Source of the DNA: Candidatus Parcubacteria bacterium
Lineage (GTDB): Bacteria; Patescibacteriota; Minisyncoccia; Phycocordibacterales; UBA918
Direction of reading: 5' to 3'
NCBI GenBank assembly: GCA_046050355.1
Contig: JBJOPW010000004.1
Span: 1-64,000, forward strand
DNA length: 64,000 nucleotides
The notes below the pieces were generated by a model. That model ran no database searches and had not been told where the DNA came from. It saw nothing but the letters and a program-made list of their open reading frames with translations. Position 1 is the stretch's first letter, and the number at the start of each line of letters is the position of its first letter. Positions 8,575-43,331 of this stretch are shown one piece after another. The position numbers and the translations under genes were made by a program.

Positions 8575-8644
8575 TGAGAGATAGTATAGCGTATTACATG
8601 TTACGAAAAAAGAAAAGTTGCCCGCGCAAGCGCAGGCAGCAGTT

Positions 8645-9163
8645 TCAATTGTCGCTTTTTTCGATGAGTGGTCGAGCAACAGGGTCTGTCATTAGTTTTT
8701 TTCGCAGTTCACCATCAAGGGTTGCAACTTCCTCAATTCGTACTTGGTAAATCTGACATTTCCCATTCGTTAGTGCCTTGAATTCTCCCATGCCAGTGAA
8801 TTGTGGCGAAGTAATATGAGCTGTTCCTATAATGCGGAAATTACCTTCCTTGGTGACTTCTACTGTATTGACGGTGAGGTCACGATACCGGTACTCCCCA
8901 CTTGGACTCTCGAAGGATGCCTTGAGTACGTTGGTAGCAGCTTTGATGGCAAGGGCTCGCTCTGCATCAGTTAGTGTTCGAAAATCTTGACCGAATGCCC
9001 GACGAGTGATTGATTCGATTGCTAGAAACTTCTCAGGGAAGCGACGTTCATTATAGGCAGAGAGGAGTTCGTTTGCACAAACCCTCGCTTCCTCAGTTGT
9101 GAGAGCCTGCACTCTAGTTGGTGCGATGAGTGCTAGCAGAAGAACGGCAAGGATCAAGCGCAT
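8645..9163 (-). CDS. Secreted protein, MlaC/Ttg2D-like
   Basis: Signal peptide; ITRRAFGQDFRTLTDAERA resembles the MlaC helix motif. Confidence 0.5.
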   Translation of the reverse strand: MRLILAVLLLALIAPTRVQALTTEEARVCANELLSAYNERRFPEKFLAIESITRRAFGQDFRTLTDAERALAIKAATNVLKASFESPSGEYRYRDLTVNTVEVTKEGNFRIIGTAHITSPQFTGMGEFKALTNGKCQIYQVRIEEVATLDGELRKKLMTDPVARPLIEKSDN

Positions 9164-26564: not shown

Positions 26565-26575
26565 ACTCGATCAGG

Positions 26576-28438
26576 TTACAGGCTGCGAACGTGGCTGATG
26601 CCGTTCTGCTCAAGGATGGCCACCATGTTGGTCTTGGCGATGTCATCGGCGAAGGCACTGTCCCGGAAGAAGACATGGGAGTCAGTCTCAGGCTCGAGCT
26701 CCCTGTGCCAATCCAGAATACCTTGAGCGAGACTGTCCACGAGGGTTGCTTCAACTGAGGTATCAAGACATGCGAATAGCACGCCATAACCGACGCTGTA
26801 GACTGATTTTCCGGCAACTTTCCGTTCTTCTATTGGGGCAGTCAGCTCTATTCCACGCTTCAACAAAAGTTCGCATAGTATATCTGCTTCGGACCGACCT
26901 TCAACAAGGTGATCCTTATTTAGAAGCAAGGCTCCCTCCATATCATTGCGATCTGGGGTCCAGGCTTTGATACCAGATCGATTCAGCTGGAAATAGCGAA
27001 AGCCTAGATCCTTCACCTTTCCTTGCATTGTTTTTCCAGCTCTCCTAATTCTTTCAGCCGACAGCTTTGCTATGTTTTCGTATCCGGCAGCTCCAGCTAC
27101 AGAACTTTTGTCAATTTCCTCTGGCAACTGAATCTGGATAAACCTACGCGTCCCGCCATCTTCTGCATTGGCGGAGAGGACAGCATGGGCCGTGGTCGAA
27201 GAGCCGGCAAAAAAATCTATAATCAGATCATCTTTGCTGTCACTCTGTGACAACTGAATCATCCGACGAATCAATCTTGTGGGCTTGGGATTGTCGAACA
27301 TTCCGGCCATTCCTAAGGCCTTCAATTCACTATTGGATTCGTGATTATGGCCGACTTCGTCATATGGCCACAATGTCGTTGGCGTAACCCCATCTTTTAT
27401 TTCGCTCAGAAAGCTTTTTCTTGATGGAGTCTGGTCTCCTTTTTCTCCAAACCAAATCTCATCACCTTCATCCATCATTTTCATAGATGCATCATTGAAA
27501 CGTCGATAGGTTCCAGCAGGTGGGGTCCATGTGACCCCATTTTTGAAGGTGTAGCTCGAGTTATTTGTTCCACTCTTGGCGTGCAAAGGCGTTGCCTTCC
27601 ACGGTCCTTTGGGGTGACCATCTGGGTTCTTATAGGCACTTACTTGGTCTTCCGTGCGAGGAAGTTGATTTAGGACAAAACTATCTTTGTTTTTGGCGTA
27701 GCATAGGACATGATCATGATTTGATGAAAACCACTTAGCGTCGTTGGCGCGAGTGTATTTCTTTTGCCAAACGACATTAGCAATGAAGTTCTCTTCGCCA
27801 AATATTTCATCACAAATTTTTCGCAGGTTCGCCTGTTCCGTGTCATCTATTGTAACGAAAATTACGCCCTCATCGGATAGTAGGGTTCTTGCGAGGCGGA
27901 TTCTGGGATACATCATATTCAACCAATTGGTGTGTAATCTCCCGCCCGTTTCCATATTGGATGAAAATTTCATTCCATCCGAGGCAATCTGGCCGGTATA
28001 CTTAAGGTAGGTCTCAAGATTGTCTTGGAATCTGTCGGGATAGATGAATTCATTCCCAGTGTTATAGGGCGGATCGATAAAAATCATTCTAGCTTTTCCT
28101 GCATAACTTTTTTGCAGGAGCTTCAGCGATTCAAGGTTATCCCCCTCAATAAAAACATTCCGAGTTGTGGCCCAATCGACACTTTCATCCTTTCGCGGTA
28201 CGAGCGTCCCTGTGCTTGGCGTGAGAGCAATTTGTCGCGCTTGCTTCTTGCCATGCCAGGTTAGGCCATACTTTTCCTCACCCTCATCTAGCACTTTTGC
28301 ATCGCCAAGCAGCTGGCGAAGAACGTCAATATTCATCCCGCCTTCGGTGAAAGCGTCGGGAAACAGCGCCTTTAGCTTGGCAATGTTCTCGGCGATGATG
28401 TTGGCGCTCTGGCCGTCTTCGTGGGTGACTTTTTTCAT
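26576..28438 (-). CDS. mod: Type III RM adenine methyltransferase Mod subunit
   Basis: IEGDNL, IDPPYNTG and DFFAGSSTT motifs. Confidence 0.95.
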   Translation of the reverse strand: MKKVTHEDGQSANIIAENIAKLKALFPDAFTEGGMNIDVLRQLLGDAKVLDEGEEKYGLTWHGKKQARQIALTPSTGTLVPRKDESVDWATTRNVFIEGDNLESLKLLQKSYAGKARMIFIDPPYNTGNEFIYPDRFQDNLETYLKYTGQIASDGMKFSSNMETGGRLHTNWLNMMYPRIRLARTLLSDEGVIFVTIDDTEQANLRKICDEIFGEENFIANVVWQKKYTRANDAKWFSSNHDHVLCYAKNKDSFVLNQLPRTEDQVSAYKNPDGHPKGPWKATPLHAKSGTNNSSYTFKNGVTWTPPAGTYRRFNDASMKMMDEGDEIWFGEKGDQTPSRKSFLSEIKDGVTPTTLWPYDEVGHNHESNSELKALGMAGMFDNPKPTRLIRRMIQLSQSDSKDDLIIDFFAGSSTTAHAVLSANAEDGGTRRFIQIQLPEEIDKSSVAGAAGYENIAKLSAERIRRAGKTMQGKVKDLGFRYFQLNRSGIKAWTPDRNDMEGALLLNKDHLVEGRSEADILCELLLKRGIELTAPIEERKVAGKSVYSVGYGVLFACLDTSVEATLVDSLAQGILDWHRELEPETDSHVFFRDSAFADDIAKTNMVAILEQNGISHVRSL

Positions 28439-28454
28439 GGTCTTCTTCTTGAAT

Positions 28455-29219
28455 TTAGTTGCTAAAGTTCAGGCGAGCTTCGAGCTTGAGTATAGCATCT
28501 TTTCGTTCCCTGATCATGCTGTTCAGGGTGATCTTGCTTCCCATCTGGTGCTCGCGATTCAGCGTGGTCCGGAGCTCAGCAATCTCGCGTTCCAGTTTGT
28601 GAATCTCCCCGAGAATGACAGTGTGTTCCTTGGATGCCGAGATCGAGGCCGAAACGAACGTCCCGGTCCTGTCCGAGGTGATCAGCCCGATGACCTGGCT
28701 CTGGAATGCTTCATAGAGGGCATAAAAGTTGGTGGCGGGAAGCCGGTGAAGCTGAATGGCCTCCAGGAAGGCCGCCTGTGATGTCGAAGGCTTGTTCGGA
28801 TCGATCCATTCGGTCTGCCAACGATCCACCAACACGAGCTTGGACTTGTCGGCCTGGTTGATCCGCTTTTCCGCAACACTGATGGCGATCTTGCCCGCGT
28901 GCTCGAACGCCAGGATCAGCGGATATGGAATGGCCCGGTGCATGAAGGCTGCGACGCGATTGAGGCGAGCAGGATTCGACAGCTCGACCGAAAGGACGGC
29001 GATCTCCAGGTATTCTCGCTCGCTGTCCTGGAAGGGTGCGATGTTGATGGTGTCGGGCTTGAGCGTGTATTGCCAGCGGATGCGCCCGACATCCTCGCTC
29101 AGCGCCTTCCTGTCGGTCTGGTCTAGCTCTGCGTGATCGAGGAACATCTTCTTGTAGACCGGCTTGTCGAGCAAGCAGGCTTCAGGGATGCCAAGGCTGG
29201 AGAGGAAGGCGTCGATCAT
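28455..29219 (-). CDS. DUF4391 domain protein
   Basis: HRAIPYP motif and C-terminal coiled coil; lies between SNF2 helicase and mod. Confidence 0.85.
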   Translation of the reverse strand: MIDAFLSSLGIPEACLLDKPVYKKMFLDHAELDQTDRKALSEDVGRIRWQYTLKPDTINIAPFQDSEREYLEIAVLSVELSNPARLNRVAAFMHRAIPYPLILAFEHAGKIAISVAEKRINQADKSKLVLVDRWQTEWIDPNKPSTSQAAFLEAIQLHRLPATNFYALYEAFQSQVIGLITSDRTGTFVSASISASKEHTVILGEIHKLEREIAELRTTLNREHQMGSKITLNSMIRERKDAILKLEARLNFSN

Positions 29220-32200
29220 GCTGCGGCTTGGATAACGAGGAAGCTCACAACCTCAAAATCGTCTCCGCCCTTGAGGTGATCTTTGGTGAGCGCCGTACCG
29301 CCACGGGAAAAGAGGCTCTCGACGCCCTTTTCTTCAGTCTTGCCGACGACGCTCTCTATGGCGCGATCCAGCAGCTCTCGATAGGCGCTCATATCGCGCC
29401 CGTTCTTGGTTTTGGTGTTAAGGGCGTCGATGCTGGCGCGGTCTAGCTCAGTCGCAGACGCGGCGAGCTTCTTGTATACGTCCAGGCTCTTTTTGGCCTG
29501 AAGGTGATTGAACACGATGGTGCCCGCCTCGGAGACATAGATGAGGTAGAATGGCGTGAGCGCGTAGCTGTCTTCGTTCTGCACCTTACCCTTAAGGTCG
29601 CGCAGGCAGAAGATCACGCCTGGCACGGCTTGGTCAATGTTGGGCGACACAACCGCGTGAAAGCCGGTTGGTGAGCCTTCCAGGCGCTTCAGGTTTTCCT
29701 TCATGAAGCTGGACAAATCCATGCGGAAGTCGTTCAGCGTCATGTCGGTGATGGAGACGCTGCCATCCATGTCCTCAAGATCGATGACGGCATCTTGGAG
29801 CTGCTGCATTTGTTTGCGACGGTATTCCAGATCGTTCATCTGCTTGTTTTCGTCATATTCGATGACGTTCTCTTCGCCGGTCGCGGAGATGTCCAAGAGC
29901 ACCATGCGACCGCTCACGCGGGCTTCGAGGTTGATATACTCGTCGAGCTGCATGTTAGGCCAGAAATTGGTGAGCTGGATCGCGGCGTTCTTCGATCCTA
30001 AGCGGTCCACGCGCCCGAAGCGCTGGATGATCCGCACCGGGTTCCAGTGGATGTCGTAATTGACTAGCATGTCGCAGTCCTGAAGGTTCTGGCCTTCCGA
30101 AATGCAGTCCGTGGCGATCAGGATGTCGATGTCAGTCGTGGCATCGGGGTCGATCTTGTCGCGCTCTTTTGAAACCGGCGAAAAATTAGTCAGGATGCTG
30201 TTGAGGTCGCGCGGCAAGCCGTCGATGGTGCAGCGGTTGGTTCCACTACCCGTCACGAGCGCGCTGTGGAGGCCAAATTCCTTCAGCGCCCAGGTGTGTA
30301 TGTGCTTGAAAAGATATTCAGCCGTGTCGGAGAAGGCGGTGAAAACGATGACCTTGTTGTTGCCAGGGTTGATCGGCGTTTTGAGCTTGGCGGCAATGGT
30401 GTCCTTCAGCTTTTGGAGCTTGGCATCGTCCGCAGCCGCAATCTTCCGCGCCTCGTCGAGCAGGTAGCCTAAAAGGATGTGATCGGCTTCGAGGTCCTGA
30501 CGCATCCGGATGAGGTCCAGGTCCTGGATCAGCACCTTGACCTTTCGGCCAATCATAAGGTCTTCGAGTTCGGGAGAATCTGCCTCGATGTCCTCGATGA
30601 GCAATTCCTCGATTTCCGTAGCCTCATGAGCATCGATCTTCGCGAGGAAGTTGCCGACCTGAGCATGAATCTTCTCGACGGTGAGAGCGAAGGAATGGAT
30701 CGAGCTCTCCATCCGCTTAAGCATGTTGACGCGCATGAGGTGGATCAGGCTGCGCTCCCGGTCCACCTGCTTGAGCGTCGATTTCCCACCTTTGACTTGT
30801 TGGTCGTACTTGCGGCTGTAATCGTCCTGCTTGTCGGCGCGCACATAATCCAGGGGCGCGTAGGCCGCCAGAGAAAGCTTCTTGATTGAGCGGTTGATGT
30901 CCTTGAGCGGCGGGAACCGGCCATCCTTGTCGATGTCCGACTTCACATTCTGCGGCTTCAGACGCTCGGGGAATTTCCCGATTTCCGCAGTGTCGTAATA
31001 CTTCTCGATATGCCGCCGCGACCGCGCGATGGTAAGCAGGTCGAGTAGCTTGAAATAGCCGAAGTTAAGGCTTTCGAGCAGCCCTTCGGTGGTGCGGCTT
31101 TCAGCCGGTAGCTTCAGCCAGGTGTTGAACTGCGTCTGCGCGCGACGGAGTGTAACTTCTATGCTTTGAATGCCCGCATCGGCTAGCGCTTTGTCCTGCC
31201 CTTCGGTGATGAAGGCGACCTGGTTCTTCAGGTCATTCAGGCGATTGTTCACCGGGGTGGCGGAGAGCATCAGGACTTTGGTTTTGACGCCTTTCCGGAT
31301 TACCTCGTCCATCAGCCGCTGGTAGCGAGTGATCTTGTCTTTGCTCGGGTTGTTGTTTCGGAAATTGTGGGACTCGTCGATGACGATGAGGTCGTAGTTG
31401 CCCCAGTTGATCGTCTCCAGGTTAATCTCACCGGAGCGACCCGTCTCGCGGCTCAAGTCTGTGTGGTTCAGGACATCAAAGTTGAAGCGATCAGCCGCAA
31501 GCAAGTTGCGCTTGTCGTTGATCGTGTAGACAGTCCAGTTTTCTCGGAGCTTCTTGGGCGCGAGCACCAGAACGCGGTCATTGCGCAGTTCGTAGTATTT
31601 TATGACGGCCAGCGCCTCGAACGTCTTACCCAAACCGACGCTGTCGGCGATGATGCAACCGTTGTAACGCTCAAGCTTGTCGATAGCGCCGAGAACGCCG
31701 TCTTTCTGGAACTTGTAGAGCTTGTTCCAAACTAACGTGTCCTTAAAGCCAGTCTTCGACCGTATGATGCTTTCCTCATCGATTTCCTCGATGAAGTCCC
31801 TGAAGATATTGAACAGGGTGATGAAGTAGAGAAGGTTCGCAGGCTTATCGGAGGCGAGGAAATCAAGGCTTTCAAGCACCGCATCCTTTGCATTGCGAAC
31901 GGCAGTTGGATCATTCCAGATTGTCTCGAACCAGTTGAGCAACTGCTTCGTTGCCTCCGGGTCTTTCGCCACGGTGTTCATCGCAAAGCTGTTGGATCGC
32001 ACAACGCCAAGACCAGCGGCTGTAAAGTCCGAAGTGCCAGCGACGGCAACCACTTCACCAAGGGGTGGTTGAATGTGAAAAATATTCTGCGCGATAGGCG
32101 CTCCTGCGAGCTGTCGGACCTGAGCCTTCTTTCGAACCCATTCCGCACACTCGGCGGCGATGCGCTGGAGGTTCAGCTCATTCTTCAGGCCAATCTCTTC

Positions 32201-32407
32201 AGTGGTCCCGGCTAGAGGCAGCGGGAGAGCGGCATCAGGTCGCGCCAAGAGAATGCGCAAGTCCTGAACCTTGTTGAGCTCTGACTTCAGGGCGGAATAA
32301 CCAAAAACGGAAAACCAGGCGGTCAAAACCAACATTTTCGAGTCTGGGCTCAAGGCCGCTCGAAGTTCGTCTACGACCTTGCCGTGGACCTTGTTATCTA
32401 GAAGCAT
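29216..32407 (-). CDS. SNF2-family helicase with degenerate PLD-like N-terminus
   Basis: ADSVGLGKT, DESH, SATP, SEGQNLQ and QRFGRVDR motifs; start placed at MLLDNK. Confidence 0.9.
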   Translation of the reverse strand: MLLDNKVHGKVVDELRAALSPDSKMLVLTAWFSVFGYSALKSELNKVQDLRILLARPDAALPLPLAGTTEEIGLKNELNLQRIAAECAEWVRKKAQVRQLAGAPIAQNIFHIQPPLGEVVAVAGTSDFTAAGLGVVRSNSFAMNTVAKDPEATKQLLNWFETIWNDPTAVRNAKDAVLESLDFLASDKPANLLYFITLFNIFRDFIEEIDEESIIRSKTGFKDTLVWNKLYKFQKDGVLGAIDKLERYNGCIIADSVGLGKTFEALAVIKYYELRNDRVLVLAPKKLRENWTVYTINDKRNLLAADRFNFDVLNHTDLSRETGRSGEINLETINWGNYDLIVIDESHNFRNNNPSKDKITRYQRLMDEVIRKGVKTKVLMLSATPVNNRLNDLKNQVAFITEGQDKALADAGIQSIEVTLRRAQTQFNTWLKLPAESRTTEGLLESLNFGYFKLLDLLTIARSRRHIEKYYDTAEIGKFPERLKPQNVKSDIDKDGRFPPLKDINRSIKKLSLAAYAPLDYVRADKQDDYSRKYDQQVKGGKSTLKQVDRERSLIHLMRVNMLKRMESSIHSFALTVEKIHAQVGNFLAKIDAHEATEIEELLIEDIEADSPELEDLMIGRKVKVLIQDLDLIRMRQDLEADHILLGYLLDEARKIAAADDAKLQKLKDTIAAKLKTPINPGNNKVIVFTAFSDTAEYLFKHIHTWALKEFGLHSALVTGSGTNRCTIDGLPRDLNSILTNFSPVSKERDKIDPDATTDIDILIATDCISEGQNLQDCDMLVNYDIHWNPVRIIQRFGRVDRLGSKNAAIQLTNFWPNMQLDEYINLEARVSGRMVLLDISATGEENVIEYDENKQMNDLEYRRKQMQQLQDAVIDLEDMDGSVSITDMTLNDFRMDLSSFMKENLKRLEGSPTGFHAVVSPNIDQAVPGVIFCLRDLKGKVQNEDSYALTPFYLIYVSEAGTIVFNHLQAKKSLDVYKKLAASATELDRASIDALNTKTKNGRDMSAYRELLDRAIESVVGKTEEKGVESLFSRGGTALTKDHLKGGDDFEVVSFLVIQAAA

Positions 32408-32573
32408 GTGGACTTTTGCCTTGCCTGAAGAGTCGTCGTATGTGGTTGATTTTTTATGGGAATCCATGCCTTTTCTAGTCTCATTATCATTCCACAGATC
32501 GAGACTACAAGCAAAGGTTGGGTGACCGGATTCTGCAGACCCGGCCACCCGCGCTCCCACAAGGGGAGGGTCG

Positions 32574-33343: not shown

Positions 33344-33586
33344 AGGTGGTCTAGAAGGTGGACCGGATTCTCAGCGCTCTACAAAAGCTATATTTTTCAG
33401 TGCATTGGAAAATTTAGTGGTGCCCAGAGCCGGAATGGGATTGCCGGAACATTCCAACACATAGCCTTGCATTTTCAATTTCTTAGACCAAGTCGCGGCT
33501 CCAAGGGCAACACATCGCCGAACATCGCTGAACATACAATCACAACCCTTGAGGTGGACTAAAAGGTGGACTAGAAAAGGTGGACT
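33344..33586. repeat. attP-like site: tRNA 3'-end core flanked by integrase arm-type repeats
   Basis: Reverse complement of 33418-33436 is ATTCCGGCTCTGGGCACCA; two AGGTGG(A/T)C repeats on the left, three on the right. Confidence 0.72.
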
Positions 33587-33599
33587 GCGGGAGGATTCG

Positions 33600-34760
33600 A
33601 TGGTTCTCTTGAACAGCCTGAACCCACTGAAAGCAAAGAACCTAGTCGCAGGAAAGCACGCTGACGGCCAAGGACTTTGGCTAGTGAAGAGTGAGCGCAC
33701 TCGGGGAAAGTGGGTTCTCCGCGTTGTCGTCCAAGGAAAGCGTCGGGAAATGGGTTTGGGCCGGTGGCCTGACGTCTCCATTGCTGAAGCGCGTGAGTTG
33801 GCCGCGGAGGCGCGGAGGAAGCTCCGGACAGGCATCGATCCGATAGCTCAACGTGTTGAAGGCCGGAAGAAAGTCGTACGCCTAACGGTACAACAAGCAG
33901 TGGACGCGTGCTTCGAGGCACGAAAAGCAGAACTCAAGAGCGACGGCGAGGCGGGTCGCTGGATGTCTCCGCTCTCAGTCCACGTGCTGCCGGTGATTGG
34001 AAAGACTGCGATAGAGGACGTCGATCAACATGTGCTGAAGAAAGCTTTGGAGCCCATCTGGCACTCAAAGGCCGACACAGCTCGAAAAGCTCTAAACCGC
34101 CTCAGCTTGACCCTAAAGCATGCGGCTGCACTTGGACTGGAAGTAGACCTCCAGGCAACGATGAAGGTCCGGGCTCTCCTAGGCAAACAAAGGCACGTGT
34201 CCGAACACATTCCTTCGATGCCATACAAAGACGCACCGGCCTTCTATCGCTGGCTCTCCGAACAGACCTCGGCGGCAGCCCTACCGCTTCGCTTCCTCAT
34301 TTTGACAGCTGCCCGAACTGGAGAGGTGCGCTATGCTCGGCATAGCTACATTGAGGACAAAGTTCTTACACTCCCTCCCGAGATCACAAAGACCGGGCGT
34401 GAACACAAAATTCCGCTTACATCGGAAGCCGCAGCAGTGATCAACGCTGCGAAGCTGCAAGACAGCCAGGACCTGTTGTTCCCTTCCCCAACCGGAAAGA
34501 CCTTCTCTGATGCGACAATGTCACGATTAATGCAGCGTGAAGGCCTAGTTTATAGGCCCCATGGCTTCAGGGCCACATTCCGGACGTGGGTCGAAGAACA
34601 AACTGACACTCCTCTCGAAGTGGCTGAGGCCGCACTCGGGCACGTCGTAGAGGGACAGGTCATCCGGGCCTACCAACGATCTGATCGACTTGAGAAACGA
34701 CGATCCTTGCTAGTCAAATGGAGCAAGTATCTGCAAGACACAGGACACCCCAACCCATAG
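33600..34760 (+). CDS. P4-like tyrosine integrase
   Basis: GKHADGQGLWL arm-binding domain; RTGE, HGFR, LGH and RAYQR catalytic motifs. Confidence 0.95.
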   Translation: MVLLNSLNPLKAKNLVAGKHADGQGLWLVKSERTRGKWVLRVVVQGKRREMGLGRWPDVSIAEARELAAEARRKLRTGIDPIAQRVEGRKKVVRLTVQQAVDACFEARKAELKSDGEAGRWMSPLSVHVLPVIGKTAIEDVDQHVLKKALEPIWHSKADTARKALNRLSLTLKHAAALGLEVDLQATMKVRALLGKQRHVSEHIPSMPYKDAPAFYRWLSEQTSAAALPLRFLILTAARTGEVRYARHSYIEDKVLTLPPEITKTGREHKIPLTSEAAAVINAAKLQDSQDLLFPSPTGKTFSDATMSRLMQREGLVYRPHGFRATFRTWVEEQTDTPLEVAEAALGHVVEGQVIRAYQRSDRLEKRRSLLVKWSKYLQDTGHPNP

Positions 34761-34775
34761 CAACCAAAAATACGG

Positions 34776-35537
34776 TCAAAGCCTGATTATTGTATCCTGA
34801 ACCTGCAGAGCGCTCATCGCCGAGCAGAACTCAGTCAAGCCAAAGTCTCGATTAAATCGGTCATTAGACTCATGAACCAAAAGCGTCTTCGCCGCGAAGA
34901 CAGCGCCCGAATCACGTGCGAGTACTATAGCTCTCAAGTACTTCCGGTCCAAATCTCCAGAAATGCTACCAGACACAACCCGAAGATAACTGGTGTCTGC
35001 TCCTACAACATAGACACGATCTGCCTGGCAAAAGTAATAACCCTGATGATCGGGGTCAACGCTTTTCCGAGCAACTTGGAATGGAGAAACGTCATCATCA
35101 CCGATCGATCTGTAAGCGTCAAAGAACTTATCGAAGTTCTTGCGCTTAATGAAATTCATGAACCGGAATAGACCACAGTACTCAAAGAAAATTAACCCTC
35201 CAGAAACTAAGTCCCCAAACCCATCCGACCGGTAATAACGAAATGCACCAAGCAGAGTCCGTGCCTGCTGAATAGACTGACTATCTATCCCCAGACTCTC
35301 GCTAAGCGCTGAGTACGTTCTAAATTGCCTGTTTGGAACTCTCAAACACACGTCAACTTTTGCAAGAGACGAAAGTTCAACTTCTTCCCCCCTATAGATT
35401 TTTTCAAGTGTCGCAATGTCTGGCGCACGCGAGCCAAAGACCTTCTTGAACGCCCGAGCAGTCTTGAAGCCGTCCGCTACCGCTCTAGCCAAAACTTCAT
35501 CACCGACCAACGTTCGAGCGCCTGACTTCAACACCAC
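34776..35537 (-). CDS. Putative HTH regulator with C-terminal beta-rich domain, divergent from radical SAM operon
   Basis: 253-aa ORF; XRE-like helix pattern DIATLEKIYRGEEVELSSLAKV. Confidence 0.6.
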   Translation of the reverse strand: MVLKSGARTLVGDEVLARAVADGFKTARAFKKVFGSRAPDIATLEKIYRGEEVELSSLAKVDVCLRVPNRQFRTYSALSESLGIDSQSIQQARTLLGAFRYYRSDGFGDLVSGGLIFFEYCGLFRFMNFIKRKNFDKFFDAYRSIGDDDVSPFQVARKSVDPDHQGYYFCQADRVYVVGADTSYLRVVSGSISGDLDRKYLRAIVLARDSGAVFAAKTLLVHESNDRFNRDFGLTEFCSAMSALQVQDTIIRL

Positions 35538-35742
35538 TACCCACTCCCGAATCTAACGATTCCTCATCAAATCGCAAGATTCTCATACCAGTCCCGGCAC
35601 TGCAAGATCAAGTCGCACGAGCGAGGTAACGATCCCAACAAACAACTGAAAATCGGTGTTTTACCAGTGACTCGTAGGCGTGCGACCATGGAGCCGCAGA
35701 TGAGAGCAACTGATCTGCGCGAACGTAGACGGGAGGAACAGA

Positions 35743-37071
35743 ATGCGCATCGCAATGGTTTACCCAGAAGTCTTCGACCTTGCACGGTTCAATGAAAAGC
35801 GGAAAGAGTTTCCGCCTTTTGGGGTAATGTACCTATCCGCCATGATGGAGCAGGCAGGGCACGTTGTCCAAGTATTTGCCATATCCTTCGAAACGAGTGC
35901 GATCGATTTCCGAGGCTTCGATGCAGTAGGATACTCCATCCCATCATCAGCAACTTTTGGTATAACAAAGAAGGTACGGTTTGCTAGTAAGTACGACGAG
36001 GGGGCACTGATCATGGCTGGTGGAGTACACGCAAACCTTTACCCACTGCAGACTCTGGATGAATTGGAACCGGACGTTGTTGGCATTGGTGAGTGCGAAC
36101 AGACCATACTCGACATCTTGGAGAGGGGTAAGAATGCGGATTTTGGTAACATCCTCGGAGTCGCCTTTAAGAAGAACGGGGAAGCAGTGAAGACACCTCC
36201 TCGTCGAGTAGATAAAGACATTGACTGGCTTCCACTTCCATCCCGACACCTCCTGCCTCGGTCAGACATTGTGATGAGCAATCGACTATCTAACACGGAC
36301 ATCGAAATGGCCCACGTCATGTTCACACGTGGATGCCCGTTTCCGTGCAGGTTCTGTGCAGTTGCGCAAACTAAGATACAGTATCGCTCAGGCGCCAGCG
36401 CAAGACGTGAAATAGTTCACCTAATGGAAACTTATGGAATAGGTGGTTTCGCCATTGTCGATGACAATTTCATCGTTGACAAGCGTAAGGTTCATGACGT
36501 AGCCGAAAGCATCCAAGACCTCGGTGTAAAATGGTCGGCTCTTTCCCGAGTCGACACCATTGACAAAGAACTGCTCACGGCAATGGCCTCATCCGGATGC
36601 ATCGAAATTAAGTTTGGAATGGAGTCAGGGAGTCAGAGAATTCTTGATGCAATGCAGAAAAACACGACCCCGGAACAGATCCTAGAGGCCGCAAGGCTTT
36701 CATATGAAGCCGGCATCAAGGCCAAGTTCTTTATTGTTCATGGTTATCCTGGTGAAAACATGGAGACCACAGCCGAGACAATCGCCCTCCTTGATAGAGC
36801 TAAAAGATATGTAGATCGAGTTTCGCTCTTCAGGTTTGCCCCATTGCCGGGGACATATGTCTACAATCACCCTGAAGAGTTCGGCCTCCGGGGAACGGAC
36901 CGGCAAGCAGACTGGGATGGCAACTGGGATAAATATCATATTTATCACAATGCGTACCACTGGTGGGGAACGGATGATCAATTTGAAGAGCTGAACAGGG
37001 CGCACACGGAGATCTCCAACTATATTGACGAAACTTGGCCAGCGACTTTTCAACCGCCCCAAAATGTGTAA
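35743..37071 (+). CDS. Cobalamin-binding radical SAM enzyme
   Basis: PPFGVMYL and GGVHA B12-binding domain; RGCPFPCRFC, DDNF and GMESGS motifs; GGAGG RBS. Confidence 0.92.
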   Translation: MRIAMVYPEVFDLARFNEKRKEFPPFGVMYLSAMMEQAGHVVQVFAISFETSAIDFRGFDAVGYSIPSSATFGITKKVRFASKYDEGALIMAGGVHANLYPLQTLDELEPDVVGIGECEQTILDILERGKNADFGNILGVAFKKNGEAVKTPPRRVDKDIDWLPLPSRHLLPRSDIVMSNRLSNTDIEMAHVMFTRGCPFPCRFCAVAQTKIQYRSGASARREIVHLMETYGIGGFAIVDDNFIVDKRKVHDVAESIQDLGVKWSALSRVDTIDKELLTAMASSGCIEIKFGMESGSQRILDAMQKNTTPEQILEAARLSYEAGIKAKFFIVHGYPGENMETTAETIALLDRAKRYVDRVSLFRFAPLPGTYVYNHPEEFGLRGTDRQADWDGNWDKYHIYHNAYHWWGTDDQFEELNRAHTEISNYIDETWPATFQPPQNV

Positions 37072-37081
37072 AACTTAGAGA

Positions 37082-37828
37082 ATGGAGAGGATTGGAACTG
37101 TAGAAGCGGTGTTCCTACGCAAGGCACATGGCCGTGCTGTTGAGGAATCAACAGTCCTCAACTTAGTGGCTGATTTCGGGATCGTAGGGGATATCAACTT
37201 CTCGGCTTCGTCGCCTCGCCATTTGCTACTTAAGAGGATTGGACGTCCAGGCGATTGGACGGACAACGCCGGTTACTTCAATGAAAACGTTTCTTTCACT
37301 TCTGAAAGTCTGAATTCGCTTCGTCCGGGAGACATCGTAAGAGTTGGCTCCGCAACTCTCCTCGTTCGTTCAAAAAATGAGCGGTGCAACATTTTTGCGC
37401 CAGAGGTCCGCGTGGCACGAGGCCTTCATTGTGTTTGCATAGACGCCGGATCCATTCGTCGTTCGGATGACATCATAAAGCTCGGTAGCGTTTCTATCGC
37501 AGAGGACAGTCGCGCGGCACTATTGGTAACGGGCCTCAGGGCTGTTCCGCTCGGAAGAGTGGTGACTTTTGAAGATGCATGCACTATGATTGGTGGCAGC
37601 CGCCCACACTTGCGGATCATTCCAAGACTGCTAAAGATTGCAATTACTTTGCATCCAACTGGGGTTCCATTTCACAGGTTAGTCAAATCTAAGGGTGATC
37701 TAATTGACAACATTGTCACTGATCAGATGCTCCTCCTGGCGGCGGAAGGTATATCGACTTCAAACGGAAGAACTGTAAATCTTCAGTTCCGTCATGTTTT
37801 CGGGAGAAACCCATTTTGCGAAATGTAA
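37082..37828 (+). CDS. MOSC domain + alkyltransferase-like (ATL/MGMT) fusion
   Basis: GIVGD, ENV, GDIVRVG, ERC and RG (MOSC); VPLGRVVTF...PFHRLV (ATL, no catalytic Cys). Confidence 0.75.
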   Translation: MERIGTVEAVFLRKAHGRAVEESTVLNLVADFGIVGDINFSASSPRHLLLKRIGRPGDWTDNAGYFNENVSFTSESLNSLRPGDIVRVGSATLLVRSKNERCNIFAPEVRVARGLHCVCIDAGSIRRSDDIIKLGSVSIAEDSRAALLVTGLRAVPLGRVVTFEDACTMIGGSRPHLRIIPRLLKIAITLHPTGVPFHRLVKSKGDLIDNIVTDQMLLLAAEGISTSNGRTVNLQFRHVFGRNPFCEM

Positions 37829-38232
37829 GCTGCTTTGTCTCGATGGCAATTGAAGCTCGTGAAGCACTTAGTGAAGAGCTCTCCGCAATTAAGAGTGTGT
37901 GCAGTAGATTTGGTGTTAGAGCCCATGTCTTCCTAGATGAATACTCATTTGAGAAAGGCAAAGAATCCCAAATGATGGCGGAGGTCGTTTCGTGTATTAA
38001 TGGCTGTGATTTCTTGATTGCTGAAGTAAGCAAGAAGGCGATTGGGGTGGGGTGTGAGGTTGGCATCGCTGCAGCATTGGGAAAGCCGGTGATCTATTGT
38101 CGGCAGGCAGGGAGTCCAGCTTCGCTGACGGTTGGCGGACTGGCAAGTTTTACTCTGACTTATAGTGAAGCCAACGAACTTGCGCGGAAACTAAGTTTCG
38201 TATTAGAGAACAGGTTCTTCGAGTCCGACTAG
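37816..38232 (+). CDS. Nucleoside 2-deoxyribosyltransferase-like protein
   Basis: CDFLIAEVSKKAIGVGCEVGIAAALGKPVI motif. Confidence 0.8.
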   Translation: MRNVSCFVSMAIEAREALSEELSAIKSVCSRFGVRAHVFLDEYSFEKGKESQMMAEVVSCINGCDFLIAEVSKKAIGVGCEVGIAAALGKPVIYCRQAGSPASLTVGGLASFTLTYSEANELARKLSFVLENRFFESD

Positions 38233-38327: not shown

Positions 38328-38357
38328 AGTTTGAGAAGTGTTTCGAAGTGGGTCACA
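38328..38357. repeat. Internal second copy of the element's right att half-site
   Basis: AGTTTGAGAAGTGTTTCGAAGTGGGTCACA matches 42861-42890 at 27/30 positions. Confidence 0.85.
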
Positions 38358-38663
38358 TTTTGGAAGTTTCGGAGCCTTCCTCGTTGCTCCGGCTCATTGT
38401 TTAACTTGATGACGGTCGCCGTCACGGGTCAGTGTGTTGATCGTACAGGATCCATGAGTGGGGTTTCGAAGCGGTCCCTGCATACCTTGGAGTTCCGGGT
38501 AGCTCGGGTGGAGGATAGTGATATTCGAGGCGCTCTCCCGTGTGGAGTGCTCGCCAATGACAGTTTGGTCGCGCATGCTGTCAGGCGCAGGACGCTAGAA
38601 GACCCTCATTGACAACTCATGGTATAGTATCTATGTCTTACTAGCTAAATGTAGAGGTAAACC

Positions 38664-38906
38664 ATGTCCGAGAAATACAAATTCAAAGTTGAGAATGAAA
38701 CCTACGAGTGGGGCGATGCAACCATCACCGCAGCGGAAGTACGCGGGGTCGGTCCAGGGATTCCTGATAGCATGGATCTCTTTGTGAAGCTTCCCGGAAA
38801 GCCTGCGCGCTTAGTGTCGGATCCAGGCGAAGTCTTTGATCTCTCGAAGCCGGGAATCGAGAAATTCTTTGCGCAGAACTCATCGTCGGAAGCGGGCGCC
38901 AACTAA
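38664..38906 (+). CDS. Ubiquitin-like (multiubiquitin-domain) protein
   Basis: YKFKVEN..YEW...IT...DLSKPGIEKF beta-grasp pattern; tail EAGAN. Confidence 0.82.
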   Translation: MSEKYKFKVENETYEWGDATITAAEVRGVGPGIPDSMDLFVKLPGKPARLVSDPGEVFDLSKPGIEKFFAQNSSSEAGAN

Positions 38907-38908
38907 TT

Positions 38909-39316
38909 ATGCCGTTATTGTTCGAAGATGACTACGAGTACTTGAAAAGTACTGGGCTAAAGTACGATGAGTACACGGACCAGCGCTTCTTGGTGGTCAG
39001 GGCTTACCCCGTTCCGGAGGGTAAGTACATCTTCGAAGGACAACCGGTTCGGACGGTCGATGTCCTGTCCATTATCCCGCCAAACTACAACACCGAAGGC
39101 TGCGACATGTTCTGGGTGCACCCAGCGATATCGCGTGCTGATGGAAAGCCCATTCCGGCAACTGGCGGCGACGACAGAGTCTTCGACAACACGACCTTCG
39201 TTCGTTGGTCCAGGCACTGGCCTGCCGGTCGATGGAGACCCAAGGTTGATACAATAGAGACCATATTGAGCCGTATCGACTGGGCCTTGCATAACCCAGA
39301 CCCTGCTGAAGCATGA
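38909..39316 (+). CDS. Prokaryotic E2-like protein (Prok-E2_E type)
   Basis: IPPNY, DMFWVHP and RWSRHW motifs. Confidence 0.82.
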   Translation: MPLLFEDDYEYLKSTGLKYDEYTDQRFLVVRAYPVPEGKYIFEGQPVRTVDVLSIIPPNYNTEGCDMFWVHPAISRADGKPIPATGGDDRVFDNTTFVRWSRHWPAGRWRPKVDTIETILSRIDWALHNPDPAEA

Positions 39317-40764
39317 GCCAACCCCGCATCACCCTCCTGCAATCACATCGAGAGCGCTTGGAGCGTTGGTTACCGTCTCATCCAGAGCATCACGAACGTG
39401 CCGCTGTAGTACTGTTCCGCTCGTTTGCACGAGAGGTACTGGAACAGACTCAATCAGAACGGCTCGTCTCGGTCGACGTGATCGAAATGACTGATGACTG
39501 GCTCGTGGAGAGCTCAGTCATCAGTGTCAAAGTCAACCTTCGAAAGCTTGTGGATCTGTATTTCCGCTGTGAGCAGGAGGGCTTACACTTAGGCTTCGTA
39601 CATAGTCACCCACTTGGTGCTGACGCCTTCTCGGGTCAGGACGATCAGAACGAACAAAACATCTTGCGGGGCTACGCTGGCTGCAATGGACGAGACTCAA
39701 GATTGGTGGCTCTTGTCTACGTCGACGGCGAGTGGATTGGTCGGGTGCGTTATGCGACCAAGCCAACCGAGAGCTCGCCTGTTCGTCACATACTTACACT
39801 GGGGGAAACCCTTGCTGTACACCATTTGACCAACCCGGAGGGTGATCTGGCTACACTGGAGCGACAGGCGGCCGCTTTCGGTCGACCATTTAATCAAAAG
39901 CTTCAGTCTCTTAGAGTTGCAGTGGTTGGGTGCGGAGGTACCGGCTCACCAACTGCTACCCTTCTGGCTCGCGCAGGTGTCGGCGAACTTATTCTCATTG
40001 ATGGTGACAACCTAGAGGAAAGCAATCTCAACCGGGTTCGAGGCTTGCGGAGAGATGATGTCGGACACAACAAGGCAGAGAGGCTGTGTTCGTACATCCG
40101 CTCCTTATCCCTGCCAACATCCGTGTCGTTTGTCCCCAATTATCTTGAGGACAATCGGGCAGCTGTCGACGCACTTTCCTCAGCCGATGTCGTATTCGGC
40201 TGCACCGACACCGTGGCAAGTCGAGAACTCTTAAACGAGGCTCTGTACTATTATGGGTTTGTGCTCATTGATTGCGGACTGTCGGGAGAAGTTGCCAGCA
40301 CTGCTGATGGGAAACCAAGGCTCATTGAGCATCGCGGTCGCGTAAGCACCGTGCAGCCCGAAACTGGAGCTTGCCTGCGCTGCCAAGGGGTCGTCACAGA
40401 CAACAAACTGAGATACGAGAGAGCGGTCAACGAGAACCCAGAGCTCAAGAAGCTCGACGCCAAAACGCTGCTCCGCGAACATTATCTAGTTGGCGGAGGC
40501 GAAGCCGCTCCGGGGGTCGGACCGTTCACTAGCGCAACTGCCGATCTTGCTGTCTCCTCACTATTTGAACTCATTCATCCATACAGACAACTGGGCGGCG
40601 ATTTCCGTCCTGACAATATTTGGCAAGATTACTTGCATATGACTTATCACAGTAACGAGCCCCGAAACCTTTCTGCCGATTGTTATTGCTGTGGCACGCG
40701 CGCGATCCTACTGAAGCGTGAGCGTCAAGTTCTACTGGACAGACCGGCACTTGGTACGATTTGA
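39313..40764 (+). CDS. JAB peptidase-ThiF/E1 fusion
   Basis: E...HSHP...FSGQD JAB motif; VGCGGTGS, SNLNR, GCTD, CLRC and CYCC motifs. Confidence 0.9.
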   Translation: MSQPRITLLQSHRERLERWLPSHPEHHERAAVVLFRSFAREVLEQTQSERLVSVDVIEMTDDWLVESSVISVKVNLRKLVDLYFRCEQEGLHLGFVHSHPLGADAFSGQDDQNEQNILRGYAGCNGRDSRLVALVYVDGEWIGRVRYATKPTESSPVRHILTLGETLAVHHLTNPEGDLATLERQAAAFGRPFNQKLQSLRVAVVGCGGTGSPTATLLARAGVGELILIDGDNLEESNLNRVRGLRRDDVGHNKAERLCSYIRSLSLPTSVSFVPNYLEDNRAAVDALSSADVVFGCTDTVASRELLNEALYYYGFVLIDCGLSGEVASTADGKPRLIEHRGRVSTVQPETGACLRCQGVVTDNKLRYERAVNENPELKKLDAKTLLREHYLVGGGEAAPGVGPFTSATADLAVSSLFELIHPYRQLGGDFRPDNIWQDYLHMTYHSNEPRNLSADCYCCGTRAILLKRERQVLLDRPALGTI

Positions 40765-40765
40765 T

Positions 40766-41200
40766 ATGAATCTAGGCATTCCCAAGATATTTCTAAACTT
40801 CTGGAAGAAAGCACGGCTTCCAGAAATCCAAGAACCTACCAATCATGTGAGGCACTATCAAGCTGCCCTGATCTTGGAAAGAACACCAAGCAACTCGGCA
40901 ATCGGAGATCGCGATTTTGTATTCGTGATCTATGAGACCGTTCCACGGTGGGCACTGTTTCGATGCCCCTGCGGCTGTAGCGAAGTCATCAGCCTACCCC
41001 TAGCTGCTCCACACAATCCTCGATGGGCCGTCTATGTCGACGAGGATGGCTTCGCTTCTCTGTATCCATCCGTTTGGCGCAACACTGGCTGCATGAGTCA
41101 CTTTGTAATTCGCTCAGGATGTGTATTCTGGGCGAATAAGAGCGGGGTCAGCCCATTTGAAGCCAGCCCAAATTTCTATAAGCCTCGCATTCCCAAGTAG
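40766..41200 (+). CDS. DUF6527 family protein
   Basis: CPCGC, SLYPSVW and GCMSHFVIR motifs. Confidence 0.85.
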   Translation: MNLGIPKIFLNFWKKARLPEIQEPTNHVRHYQAALILERTPSNSAIGDRDFVFVIYETVPRWALFRCPCGCSEVISLPLAAPHNPRWAVYVDEDGFASLYPSVWRNTGCMSHFVIRSGCVFWANKSGVSPFEASPNFYKPRIPK

Positions 41201-42636: not shown

Positions 42637-42860
42637 GTGACTACTCTACACCAAATCCCAAGCTACGGCACCTTAAGGCGATGATGACGGTTTGGCCAAG
42701 GAACACAACCCGTATGGCACCTCTATGCTGCATCTGCTGTGTCTTGAGGCTTTTGATACTTCAAATTGTACTGCCACTGCGGGATCTTATTTGGAGTACA
42801 CGCTGGTCTTTTAGGACAGAAGGTTAGAAGGTGGCTCAGGGACGTCTTCATCTCCTTTAG

Positions 42861-42889
42861 AGTTCGAGAAGTGTTCCGATGTGGGTCAC
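42861..42889. repeat. att site, right junction
   Basis: Core GTGGGTCAC at 42881-42889. Confidence 0.9.
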
Positions 42890-43219
42890 ACTGGCGGCAA
42901 AACCGGTGGCGGCAGTGGGGATGCCGATGATGATGGGTTGACGCCTTTCATCATCGGACAAAATGTCGCAGATGCGTTTGCCGATGAATCGTCCGCACCG
43001 CTCAGTCAGGGATGGGTTGTCGGTCAGGTCGCCACGACCATTGAAGTAGATGTGGCTCGCTACACCGCTTTTCAGTGTGAACGGATCTTCTGTCCACACC
43101 AACATTCCATATTTGACCATTTCACGGATCAGGTCGATCTCCTCGTTTTCGAAGCGACGACCTGCACCGAATGGTGAAGTAAGTTCTGGCAAAGTACTAA
43201 TCCTTCCTGTTTGGGCCAC
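42881..43219 (-). pseudogene. pyrE: 5' half of interrupted orotate phosphoribosyltransferase-like gene
   Basis: FTLKSGVASHIYFN and IIGIPTAA motifs; reads into the element and stops at 42857; GTG start assumed. Confidence 0.8.
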
Positions 43220-43331
43220 TCCATCACGTATGGTGTGGCGGTTTGGCGATGGGGGTAGAGTACGCTTTGGCAAGTAAAAATGCAAGTACAGCAAAGAAAA
43301 TGAGTAATCTCATGCTACTATTTACATATAC

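Follow-up and report, generated by a model that had tools for sequence, protein, structure and literature searches.

Results

Organization of the Locus

The window analyzed here is a 64,000-nucleotide (nt) stretch of DNA from Candidatus Parcubacteria bacterium (assembly GCA_046050355.1, contig JBJOPW010000004.1, positions 1 to 64,000 of the forward strand). It carries three adjacent genes for a radical S-adenosylmethionine enzyme with a cobalamin (B12)-binding domain (rSAM), a predicted fusion of a MOSC domain with an alkyltransferase-like (ATL) domain, and a protein related to the nucleoside deoxyribosyltransferase (NDT) family. In a preliminary description these genes were presented as tightly linked and accompanied by a divergent gene. 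All four open reading frames (ORFs) were located, with the following coordinates and lengths in amino acids (aa):

35743-37071, plus strand: B12-binding-domain radical SAM gene, the conserved core, assigned using Pfam (442 aa)
37082-37828, plus strand: MOSC-ATL fusion gene, with a predicted N-terminal MOSC β-barrel and a predicted C-terminal alkyltransferase-like base-flipping domain (248 aa)
37816-38232, plus strand: gene for a putative DNPH1/Rcl-like nucleotide N-glycosidase of the NDT fold (138 aa, TTG start)
34776-35537, minus strand: divergent gene, possibly an XRE-type helix-turn-helix (HTH) regulator, outside the conserved cassette (253 aa)

The rSAM and fusion genes are separated by a 10-nt gap, the fusion and NDT-like genes overlap by 13 nt, and all three are read from one strand. 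This spacing gives the trio at 35743-38232 (+) the layout of an operon.

Radical SAM Enzyme

The rSAM protein was identified using Pfam, where Radical_SAM is matched at 72.5 bits, above the cut-off, and B12-binding (PF02310) at 43.6 bits against a cut-off of 32.1 for residues 22-123. The cluster motif C198-x3-C202-x2-C205 (CxxxCxxC) is invariant in 32 members of the family. Its cluster motif and its N-terminal Rossmann-type B12-binding domain are those of class B (cobalamin-dependent) radical SAM enzymes. The protein falls among the B12-radical SAM families of NCBIfam at scores far under every curated cut-off, and belongs to no named family. The structurally characterized proteins matched by the family profile in the PDB include QCMT (3e-20), AprD4 (6e-20), and OxsB (5e-9). 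Weak generic matches to the core are all that PADLOC-DB 2.0 returned for the rSAM, namely PDC-M51A at 2.4e-11 and two PDC-S05 models at 2.3e-4 and 5.1e-3. Viperin models are absent from the NCBIfam and PADLOC matches of the rSAM, and the divergent, fusion, and NDT-like genes have no match in PADLOC-DB 2.0.

MOSC-ATL Fusion Protein

The two Pfam domains of the fusion protein from the window appear below threshold only, MOSC at 18.6 bits (cut-off 22.7) and DNA_binding_1 at 21.7 bits (cut-off 27). A word-index search returned the query alone; the relatives were revealed by an exhaustive HMMER search. The 107 full-length relatives, nearly all of them about 250 aa long, align from end to end and are annotated as "MGMT family protein", "MOSC domain-containing protein", or "alkylated DNA nucleotide flippase Atl1". 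When the family profile was compared with the PDB, matches were obtained to Schizosaccharomyces pombe Atl1 (3gva, 1e-15), the ATL of Vibrio parahaemolyticus (2kif, 1.5e-15), and YiiM (5e-6). The AlphaFold model of the fusion has a pLDDT of 92.7. Using Foldseek, its N-terminal half was found to resemble YuaD, YiiM, and mARC1, and its C-terminal half the ATL structures 2kif and 3gx4, with a TM-score of 0.68-0.69 on the target.

In an alignment of 50 sequences every row has Cys102 of the MOSC half, and conservation of Arg178 reaches at least 90%. The position of the acceptor cysteine lies in a motif P-x-H-R; the 25 of 50 rows shown have V, L, I, A, or F at x, and none has Cys there. The protein from the window carries PFHR. 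Arg178 aligns with the arginine of the Atl1 sequence SYARQ, and at the aromatic position most members have Tyr and the window protein Phe. ATL proteins have an arginine finger and a phosphate-rotating tyrosine, to which these two positions may correspond. Judged from sequence and model, the protein is a MOSC domain joined to an alkyltransferase-like domain that is predicted to be unable to accept an alkyl group. The fusion, which the preliminary description had read from a single sequence, is borne out at the level of the family by the full-length relatives, the profile matches, and the model. A YiiM-like reductase role of the MOSC half is doubtful in this host, because genes for molybdenum-cofactor synthesis are absent.

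The fusion is also encoded alone on nine cyanobacterial plasmids, none of which carries the rSAM gene, and the MOSC-ATL protein is therefore not special to the rSAM system. Examples lie at 8031-8753 of Trichormus plasmid A (L006) and at 7986-8753 of a Gloeothece plasmid (L007). One plasmid fusion gene directly follows parA/parB, and another is found two genes from an IscB gene.

NDT/DNPH1-like Protein

The third gene product matches Nuc_deoxyrib_tr (PF05014) at 35 bits against a cut-off of 28.8. Like the rSAM enzyme, it keeps the family assignment of the preliminary description, since both are matched in Pfam above the cut-offs. A profile built with three homologues finds Rcl/DNPH1 as the best solved relative, at 5e-9 over part of the protein; a CMP N-glycosidase comes second, and the true transferases score far lower. 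Rcl/DNPH1 is a deoxynucleoside 5'-phosphate N-hydrolase, and is named 5-hydroxymethyl-dUMP N-hydrolase in some PDB entries. Glu81, in the sequence GVGCEVG (consensus GVGxEvG), is invariant in the four homologues and aligns with the glutamate of GVGYELG in Rcl. Ser103 aligns with a serine of Rcl that presumably binds phosphate. From these alignments the protein looks like a deoxynucleoside monophosphate hydrolase, with DNPH1/Rcl as its nearest relative and the catalytic glutamate kept.

Recurrence of the Three-Gene Unit

The trio is found again, with its gene order unchanged, in two near-identical loci of Verrucomicrobiales (L004 and L005) and on one soil metagenome contig (L008). The Verrucomicrobiales loci were obtained by a locus search with a four-sequence alignment of the fusion. 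Identity between the window and these loci is 71% for the rSAM, 31% for the fusion, and 39% for the NDT-like protein, and both MOSC and DNA_binding_1 are detected in the Verrucomicrobiales fusion. On the soil contig the rSAM is 70% identical, and MOSC, DNA_binding_1, and Nuc_deoxyrib_tr are matched at 38.5, 36.6, and 38.7 bits, respectively, all above the cut-offs. Conservation of the gene neighborhood had been proposed in the preliminary description as a check, and the outcome is positive, with three non-redundant loci including the window. Three further fusion/rSAM pairs (P0119/P0005, P0121/P0008, and P0122/P0009) are probably co-located as well, since the two members of each pair agree in the length of the longest contig.

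All three non-redundant trio loci (3/3) lie on conjugative or mobilisable elements. The trio of L005 is flanked by genes for a coupling protein, RadC, a primase, and a Replic_Relax relaxase, and a dNK-like kinase gene directly follows it. In L008 a MobA/VirD2 relaxase gene is found 5 kb upstream of the trio. A Replic_Relax relaxase and a coupling-protein-like ATPase are also encoded upstream of the trio on the island of the window. A mobile element common to the window and L005 was considered and rejected, because the relaxases and coupling proteins are 24-35% identical over parts only.

Two genes upstream of the trio in L008, at L008:1450-3153 (-) and L008:5004-5786 (-), encode an HD + HD_assoc_2 protein with a dGTPase-like architecture and an N6_Mtase-like fragment. 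By their domains these are further nucleotide- or DNA-directed cargo.

Neighborhoods of the Radical SAM Family

Relatives of the rSAM form 668 clusters at E < 1e-60, and the best 120 of these are 53-71% identical to it. Many members come, by their names, from Streptomyces, Nonomuraea, and other actinomycetes. The neighborhoods were collected from 83 sources, consisting of 80 loci from a metagenome scan together with L004, L005, and the window. An rSAM ORF was called in 80 of the 83 (L025, L055, and L063 were lost), and collapse at 90% identity left 55 loci. Names of neighboring families are those of the Pfam matches of cluster representatives only. The families found within four genes of the rSAM gene are:

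AlkZ-like: 27/55 loci, 24 on the same strand and 18 as the next gene
u133, a convergent gene of 133 aa: 15/55 loci
thymidylate-kinase-like: 10/55 loci
MazG-like: 6/55 loci
dNK-like: 5/55 loci
NUDIX: 3/55 loci
MOSC-ATL fusion: 3/55 loci
NDT-like: 3/55 loci

A fourth NDT-like gene, that of L005, was removed by the overlap filter and confirmed separately. Within three genes of the rSAM gene, 46 of the 55 loci have a partner (AlkZ-like 27, u133 15, MOSC-ATL 3, NDT alone 1), and these partners belong to families that cleave N-glycosidic bonds or read damaged purines. The nine loci with no partner are mostly short contigs.

A quick maximum-likelihood tree was made from 53 rSAM sequences, from which two rows shorter than 400 aa were excluded. 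The three trio-linked enzymes form one clade with an SH-aLRT value of 100. Partner type changes three times on the tree, compared with a mean of 16.3 for shuffled labels, and none of 200 shuffles gave a count as low.

The AlkZ-like partners match PF06224 (HTH_42) at up to 1e-41 and align with AlkZ (5uuj) at 9e-11. They read G-l-H-a-a-R where AlkZ reads G-V-Q-A-Q, with His38 and Arg41 invariant and Ala40 nearly so. Examples of the H-A-A-R motif are found at L013:7327-8502, L023:7377-8537, and L083:7278-8432, and at 21 other loci. The motifs given in the available part of a study of the HTH_42 clades YQL, AZL, and AZL2 (PMC9040887) are QΦD, (Q/H)ΦQ, and HΦ(S/T)(D/E), and H-A-A-R matches none of these. 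By their motif the rSAM-linked AlkZ-like proteins may, like ATL proteins, be readers and not enzymes, and may form a non-glycosylase branch of HTH_42.

The u133 gene is always convergent with the rSAM gene, as at L057:7336-7740 (-) and 14 similar loci. The family has no match in Pfam, and its profile gave nothing meaningful against the PDB sequences. The predicted structure (pLDDT 93.2) was compared using Foldseek, and the top ten rows are NDT or DNPH1 structures with E values of 1.5e-4 to 4.8e-4; the CMP N-glycosidase BcmB appears at rank 14. The hhalign alignment of u133 with NDT is weak, with a probability of 29%. As the family was placed by fold comparison alone, u133 is assigned to the NDT fold provisionally, from its model.

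Divergent Gene, Mobile Island, and Host

The divergent 253-aa gene has no match in Pfam, NCBIfam, or PADLOC. The Atlas leads for its product are clusters of HTH_3, HTH_26, and HTH_31 (0.90-0.93; TM 0.5-0.58). The genes upstream of the trio in L005 and L008 are unrelated to it, a different gene being found at every locus. Of its earlier designation as a divergent HTH-type gene, the position is retained, and the type is tentatively suggested by the leads to XRE-type HTH proteins; it has no Pfam match and is not part of the conserved unit. With unrelated genes in this position at L005 and L008, a role as regulator of the system was rejected.

The trio shares a mobile island with a restriction-type cluster, an integrase, and a Bub ubiquitin-like cassette. 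The features of the island are:

23571-32560, minus strand: type III-like restriction/defense module with a Res-type helicase-nuclease containing a RE_endonuc domain, an N6/N4 methylase, DUF4391, and a SNF2 helicase of 1114 aa
32942-33271: plus strand, H-NS C-terminal-domain protein, adjoining the P4-type integrase
33549-34760: tyrosine integrase (P4-type), between the H-NS-like gene and the divergent gene
38333-38357, plus strand: att-like repeat of 25 nt, at the right edge of the trio segment and the left edge of the Bub/AbiE cassette
38664-41200: operon of Multi_ubiq, E2, JAB-E1, and DUF6527 genes, downstream of the trio and followed by an AbiEii gene

The Res/Mod/DUF4391/SNF2 cluster and the Multi_ubiq/E2/JAB-E1/DUF6527 genes correspond to the restriction-modification and ubiquitin-like systems between which the preliminary description had placed the trio; the tyrosine integrase does not appear in that description. 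Among the trio loci the copy in the window is the only one with defense systems on both sides. A second copy of the att-like repeat, with two mismatches, is found at 42866-42890 inside a 145-aa ORF (42857-43294); two matches were found in none of 100 shuffles. The two copies bracket the Bub operon and the AbiEii gene. With the integrase on one side and the att-like repeat on the other, the trio forms a separate piece of cargo. A 93-aa ORF at 38331-38612 (+) begins on the att-like repeat and matches no family; it is unlikely to be a gene. The H-NS-like gene was probably imported with the island; genomes of this order measure only 0.5-0.9 Mb.

The host genome has a size of 0.94 Mb and is 99.97% complete. 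Searches of 40 relatives of the host, 24 from the same genus and 16 from other families of the order, revealed no copy of the fusion or of the rSAM. The rSAM of the island is the sole protein of the host genome with a B12-binding domain. UvrA is encoded by the host, and MoaC is present in the Verrucomicrobiales hosts of the trio.

Discussion

A Functional Unit with a Proposed Role in Nucleotide or Base Chemistry

Neighborhood, phylogeny, and operon structure show that the rSAM gene and its partners constitute a functional unit, in which the rSAM is constant and the variable part is always related to nucleotides or damaged bases. Gene order, conservation, domain identities, and neighborhood statistics were observed directly; the substrate, chemistry, and division of labor proposed for this unit, like any part it may play in conflict with phages or other mobile elements, are inferred. 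The reading that we prefer, at a probability of roughly 0.4, is that the rSAM enzyme alters a deoxynucleotide and that its partners govern the fate of the product in the nucleotide pool and in DNA.

The trio would then be a single operon that travels by horizontal transfer, with a cobalamin-type radical SAM enzyme at its center whose substrate is a (deoxy)nucleotide or base; the reaction would most likely be radical C-methylation or rearrangement. In the pool, the DNPH1-like enzyme would cut the N-glycosidic bond of the altered deoxynucleoside monophosphate, or of one that competes with it. Once in DNA, the altered purine would be flipped out and bound by the MOSC-ATL protein, which would subsequently either pass the site to excision repair or process the base via the MOSC cysteine. 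In the sister systems this reader may be replaced by a DNA-lesion protein of the AlkZ-like type or by a different protein with the NDT fold, and the thymidylate-kinase-like, dNK-like, MazG, or NUDIX enzymes may shuttle nucleotides between the mono- and triphosphate levels.

This reading is favored by the strong conservation of the rSAM relative to the weak conservation of its partners, by the kinase and pyrophosphatase genes, and by the precedents of OxsB and of viperin with its kinase. Identities of 53-71% for the rSAM across phyla, set against 31-39% for the partners, fit a universal small-molecule substrate. The nucleotide-centered neighborhood fits the making or processing of a modified nucleotide or base.

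Several observations weigh against it. Nothing in the data separates making from repairing as the task of the rSAM, and the copy in the window is not accompanied by a kinase or pyrophosphatase gene. AlkZ-like and ATL proteins are readers of DNA lesions and not enzymes of the pool, and DNA itself could be the substrate. With H-A-A-R in place of the Q-A-Q of AlkZ, the rSAM-linked AlkZ-like proteins may not be glycosylases. AprD4, which also has the B12-binding domain in Pfam, scores near the true methylase QCMT, and at the level of sequence the use of cobalamin is thus unproven. The host genome contains no gene for MoaC, MoCF_biosynth, or the PduO-type cobalamin adenosyltransferase (PF01923), so both cofactors implied by the domains would be scavenged from outside or left unused. 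No catalogued anti-phage system was matched using PADLOC. The flanks of the family are heterogeneous, with 133 Pfam families over 150 of the 184 flank proteins and none of them in more than four proteins. The rSAM is absent from 50,697 phage records and 72,556 plasmids, and no copy was confirmed in IMG/VR. A phage pre-replicative hypermodification pathway had been considered as the principal interpretation and was dropped, since no match to the rSAM was found in these three collections.

Alternative Explanations

The activity could instead be directed at DNA. An inert ATL or AlkZ-like adaptor would present a purine of the duplex, the rSAM would C-alkylate it in place as a self- or anti-restriction mark, and the NDT-like enzyme would clear modified mononucleotides arising from DNA turnover. 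Both alternative partners come from base-flipping families and lack the catalytic residues of related enzymes (no Cys in P-x-H-R, H-A-A-R for Q-A-Q), and the location of every non-redundant trio on a conjugative or mobilisable element is consistent with such a mark. A precedent is gp53 of phage M6, which is called the first radical SAM enzyme to install a DNA modification in the available part of the source (PMC8989533). The scheme is nevertheless unlikely. An identity of 71% for the rSAM against 31% for the supposed adaptor would be unusual in an obligate complex, and 16 of the 55 loci have an NDT-fold partner only and no DNA reader. The kinases, MazG, and NUDIX suggest the pool and not DNA, and the MOSC-ATL protein also occurs by itself on the nine plasmids. 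In a closely related proposal, to which we likewise give a low probability, the rSAM performs radical carbon chemistry on a purine, either alkylation or oxygen-free removal of an alkyl group, while the base is presented from duplex DNA by catalytically silent descendants of repair proteins, the ATL or the H-A-A-R AlkZ-like protein. If this were true, the rSAM would be the first B12-radical SAM enzyme to act on DNA, and lesion readers would have been put to a new use as targeting subunits spread by mobile elements. The same families can also be read as a house-cleaning or repair module. The ATL domain would mark O6-type adducts so that nucleotide excision repair acts on them, damaged nucleotides would be destroyed by the DNPH1-like enzyme (elsewhere MazG or NUDIX), and the rSAM would reverse or convert the lesion through radical chemistry or that of cob(I)alamin. 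ATL, AlkZ, DNPH1, MazG, and NUDIX are all sanitation or lesion families, as judged from PDB names and established roles; the UvrA of the host makes a hand-off from ATL to excision repair possible, and many members of the rSAM family lie in ordinary chromosomal contexts. We nonetheless doubt this explanation, because thymidylate-kinase-like genes do not suit sanitation and strain-specific cargo absent from 40 relatives is less expected of a repair module. To our knowledge, no radical SAM or cobalamin enzyme dealkylates DNA or nucleotides. Spore photoproduct lyase is the sole repair radical SAM enzyme cited in the available part of PMC8989533.

A small biosynthetic unit is quite improbable. In such a unit the rSAM would modify a nucleotide, the NDT-like hydrolase would free the base in the manner of MilB/BlsM as a signal or antibiotic, and the DNA readers would provide self-resistance. 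Structures of CMP N-glycosidase and CMP/hydroxymethyl-CMP hydrolase are among the matches of the NDT-like protein and u133, and the rSAM family is frequent in actinomycetes, as their names indicate. Genotoxin clusters contain AlkZ-family genes that confer self-resistance, although the AZL2 and YQL clades are placed outside biosynthetic clusters (PMC9040887, available part). Recurrent transporter, tailoring, or scaffold genes are not found beside the pair, and the unit is only 2-4 genes long. That three unrelated cargo genes stand side by side by chance is scarcely credible. Mobile islands do gather unrelated genes, and MOSC-ATL is found elsewhere on plasmids lacking the rSAM; against this, the order and spacing are repeated in three non-redundant loci of different lineages, partner type is tied tightly to the rSAM phylogeny, and the genes overlap. 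The identities of 31-71% also speak against recent copies of one element.

Relation to Defense and Implications

The preliminary description had suggested that the trio belongs to an undescribed system that makes or processes a nucleotide analogue. The recurrence of the trio and the nucleotide-centered neighbors of the rSAM agree with this suggestion. The statement that the combination resembles no named system still holds, given that PADLOC returned a weak generic match to the rSAM and that no description of the trio, the MOSC-ATL fusion, or the link between rSAM and AlkZ was found in the literature searched, whose coverage excluded subscription journals. The PADLOC check proposed for a role in defense gave a negative result, with no matching system. 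Neither a larger conserved operon nor a defense-island signal was seen in the family flanks (150/184 flank proteins). An antiviral or defense role of the mobile trio is plausible on a single ground, its position inside mobile elements.

If the rSAM does alter a deoxynucleotide, the family of at least 668 protein clusters would define an unrecognized route of nucleotide or DNA-base chemistry, and its members would be the second nucleotide-acting cobalamin radical SAM enzyme after OxsB. A shared physiological context would be provided for ATL, altered-motif AlkZ-like, and DNPH1-like proteins, and a novel modified nucleotide, antiviral or mutagenic in effect, might be produced. Besides being common in actinomycetes, the family reaches bacteria with tiny genomes on mobile elements, as a unit of 2-4 genes.

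Comparison with Known Systems

The substrates of OxsB are deoxyadenosine phosphates, and OxsA is its small nucleotide-hydrolyzing partner. The pair resembles the trio in that the radical SAM enzyme bears a cobalamin-binding domain at its N terminus and has a small partner of this kind. OxsB is nevertheless distant from the rSAM of the window, and QCMT and AprD4 score better on the family profile. OxsA is an HD phosphohydrolase, whereas the trio has a putative NDT-fold N-glycosidase and a predicted DNA-lesion reader, with no biosynthetic cluster around them. In the available part of a 2026 review of B12-radical SAM enzymes (PMC12931638), OxsB is assigned to the biosynthesis of oxetanocin A and is the sole member named from a nucleotide pathway.

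The prokaryotic viperins and the vertebrate viperin-CMPK2 pair resemble the rSAM family in the thymidylate-kinase-family or other nucleotide kinases adjacent to it in 15 of the 55 loci. Viperin adjoins the thymidylate-kinase-family kinase CMPK2, and its logic is that a nucleotide analogue is made. Viperins belong to another radical SAM class; the enzyme of the window has a B12-binding domain and no kinase beside it. We know of no viperin system with ATL, AlkZ, or NDT partners.

The C-terminal half of the fusion has the fold of Atl1, eAtl/YbaZ, and the V. parahaemolyticus ATL, which is the AGT C-terminal fold with a helix-turn-helix, with the arginine kept and the acceptor cysteine absent. It differs from these proteins in its added MOSC domain and in its operon with a radical SAM gene. 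The position of the Atl1 tryptophan is occupied by hydrophobic V, L, F, I, or A in the fusion family, and the window protein has Phe for Tyr. The N-terminal half shares the MOSC β-barrel and an invariant cysteine with YiiM, YcbX, and mARC. Compared with YiiM and mARC it is much shorter, its nearest relative is the minimal YuaD, and it is found in a host with no genes for molybdenum-cofactor synthesis.

The interstrand-crosslink glycosylases AlkZ/YcaQ (HTH_42) resemble the commonest partner of the rSAM family, for which there is no gene in the window. The catalytic motif of AlkZ is Q-Φ-Q/D, in contrast to H-A-A-R in the rSAM-linked proteins. DNPH1/Rcl, MilB/BlsM, and BcmB have the fold and the GVGxE catalytic motif in common with the NDT-like protein of the trio, which is set apart from them by the operon that links its gene to that of a radical SAM enzyme.

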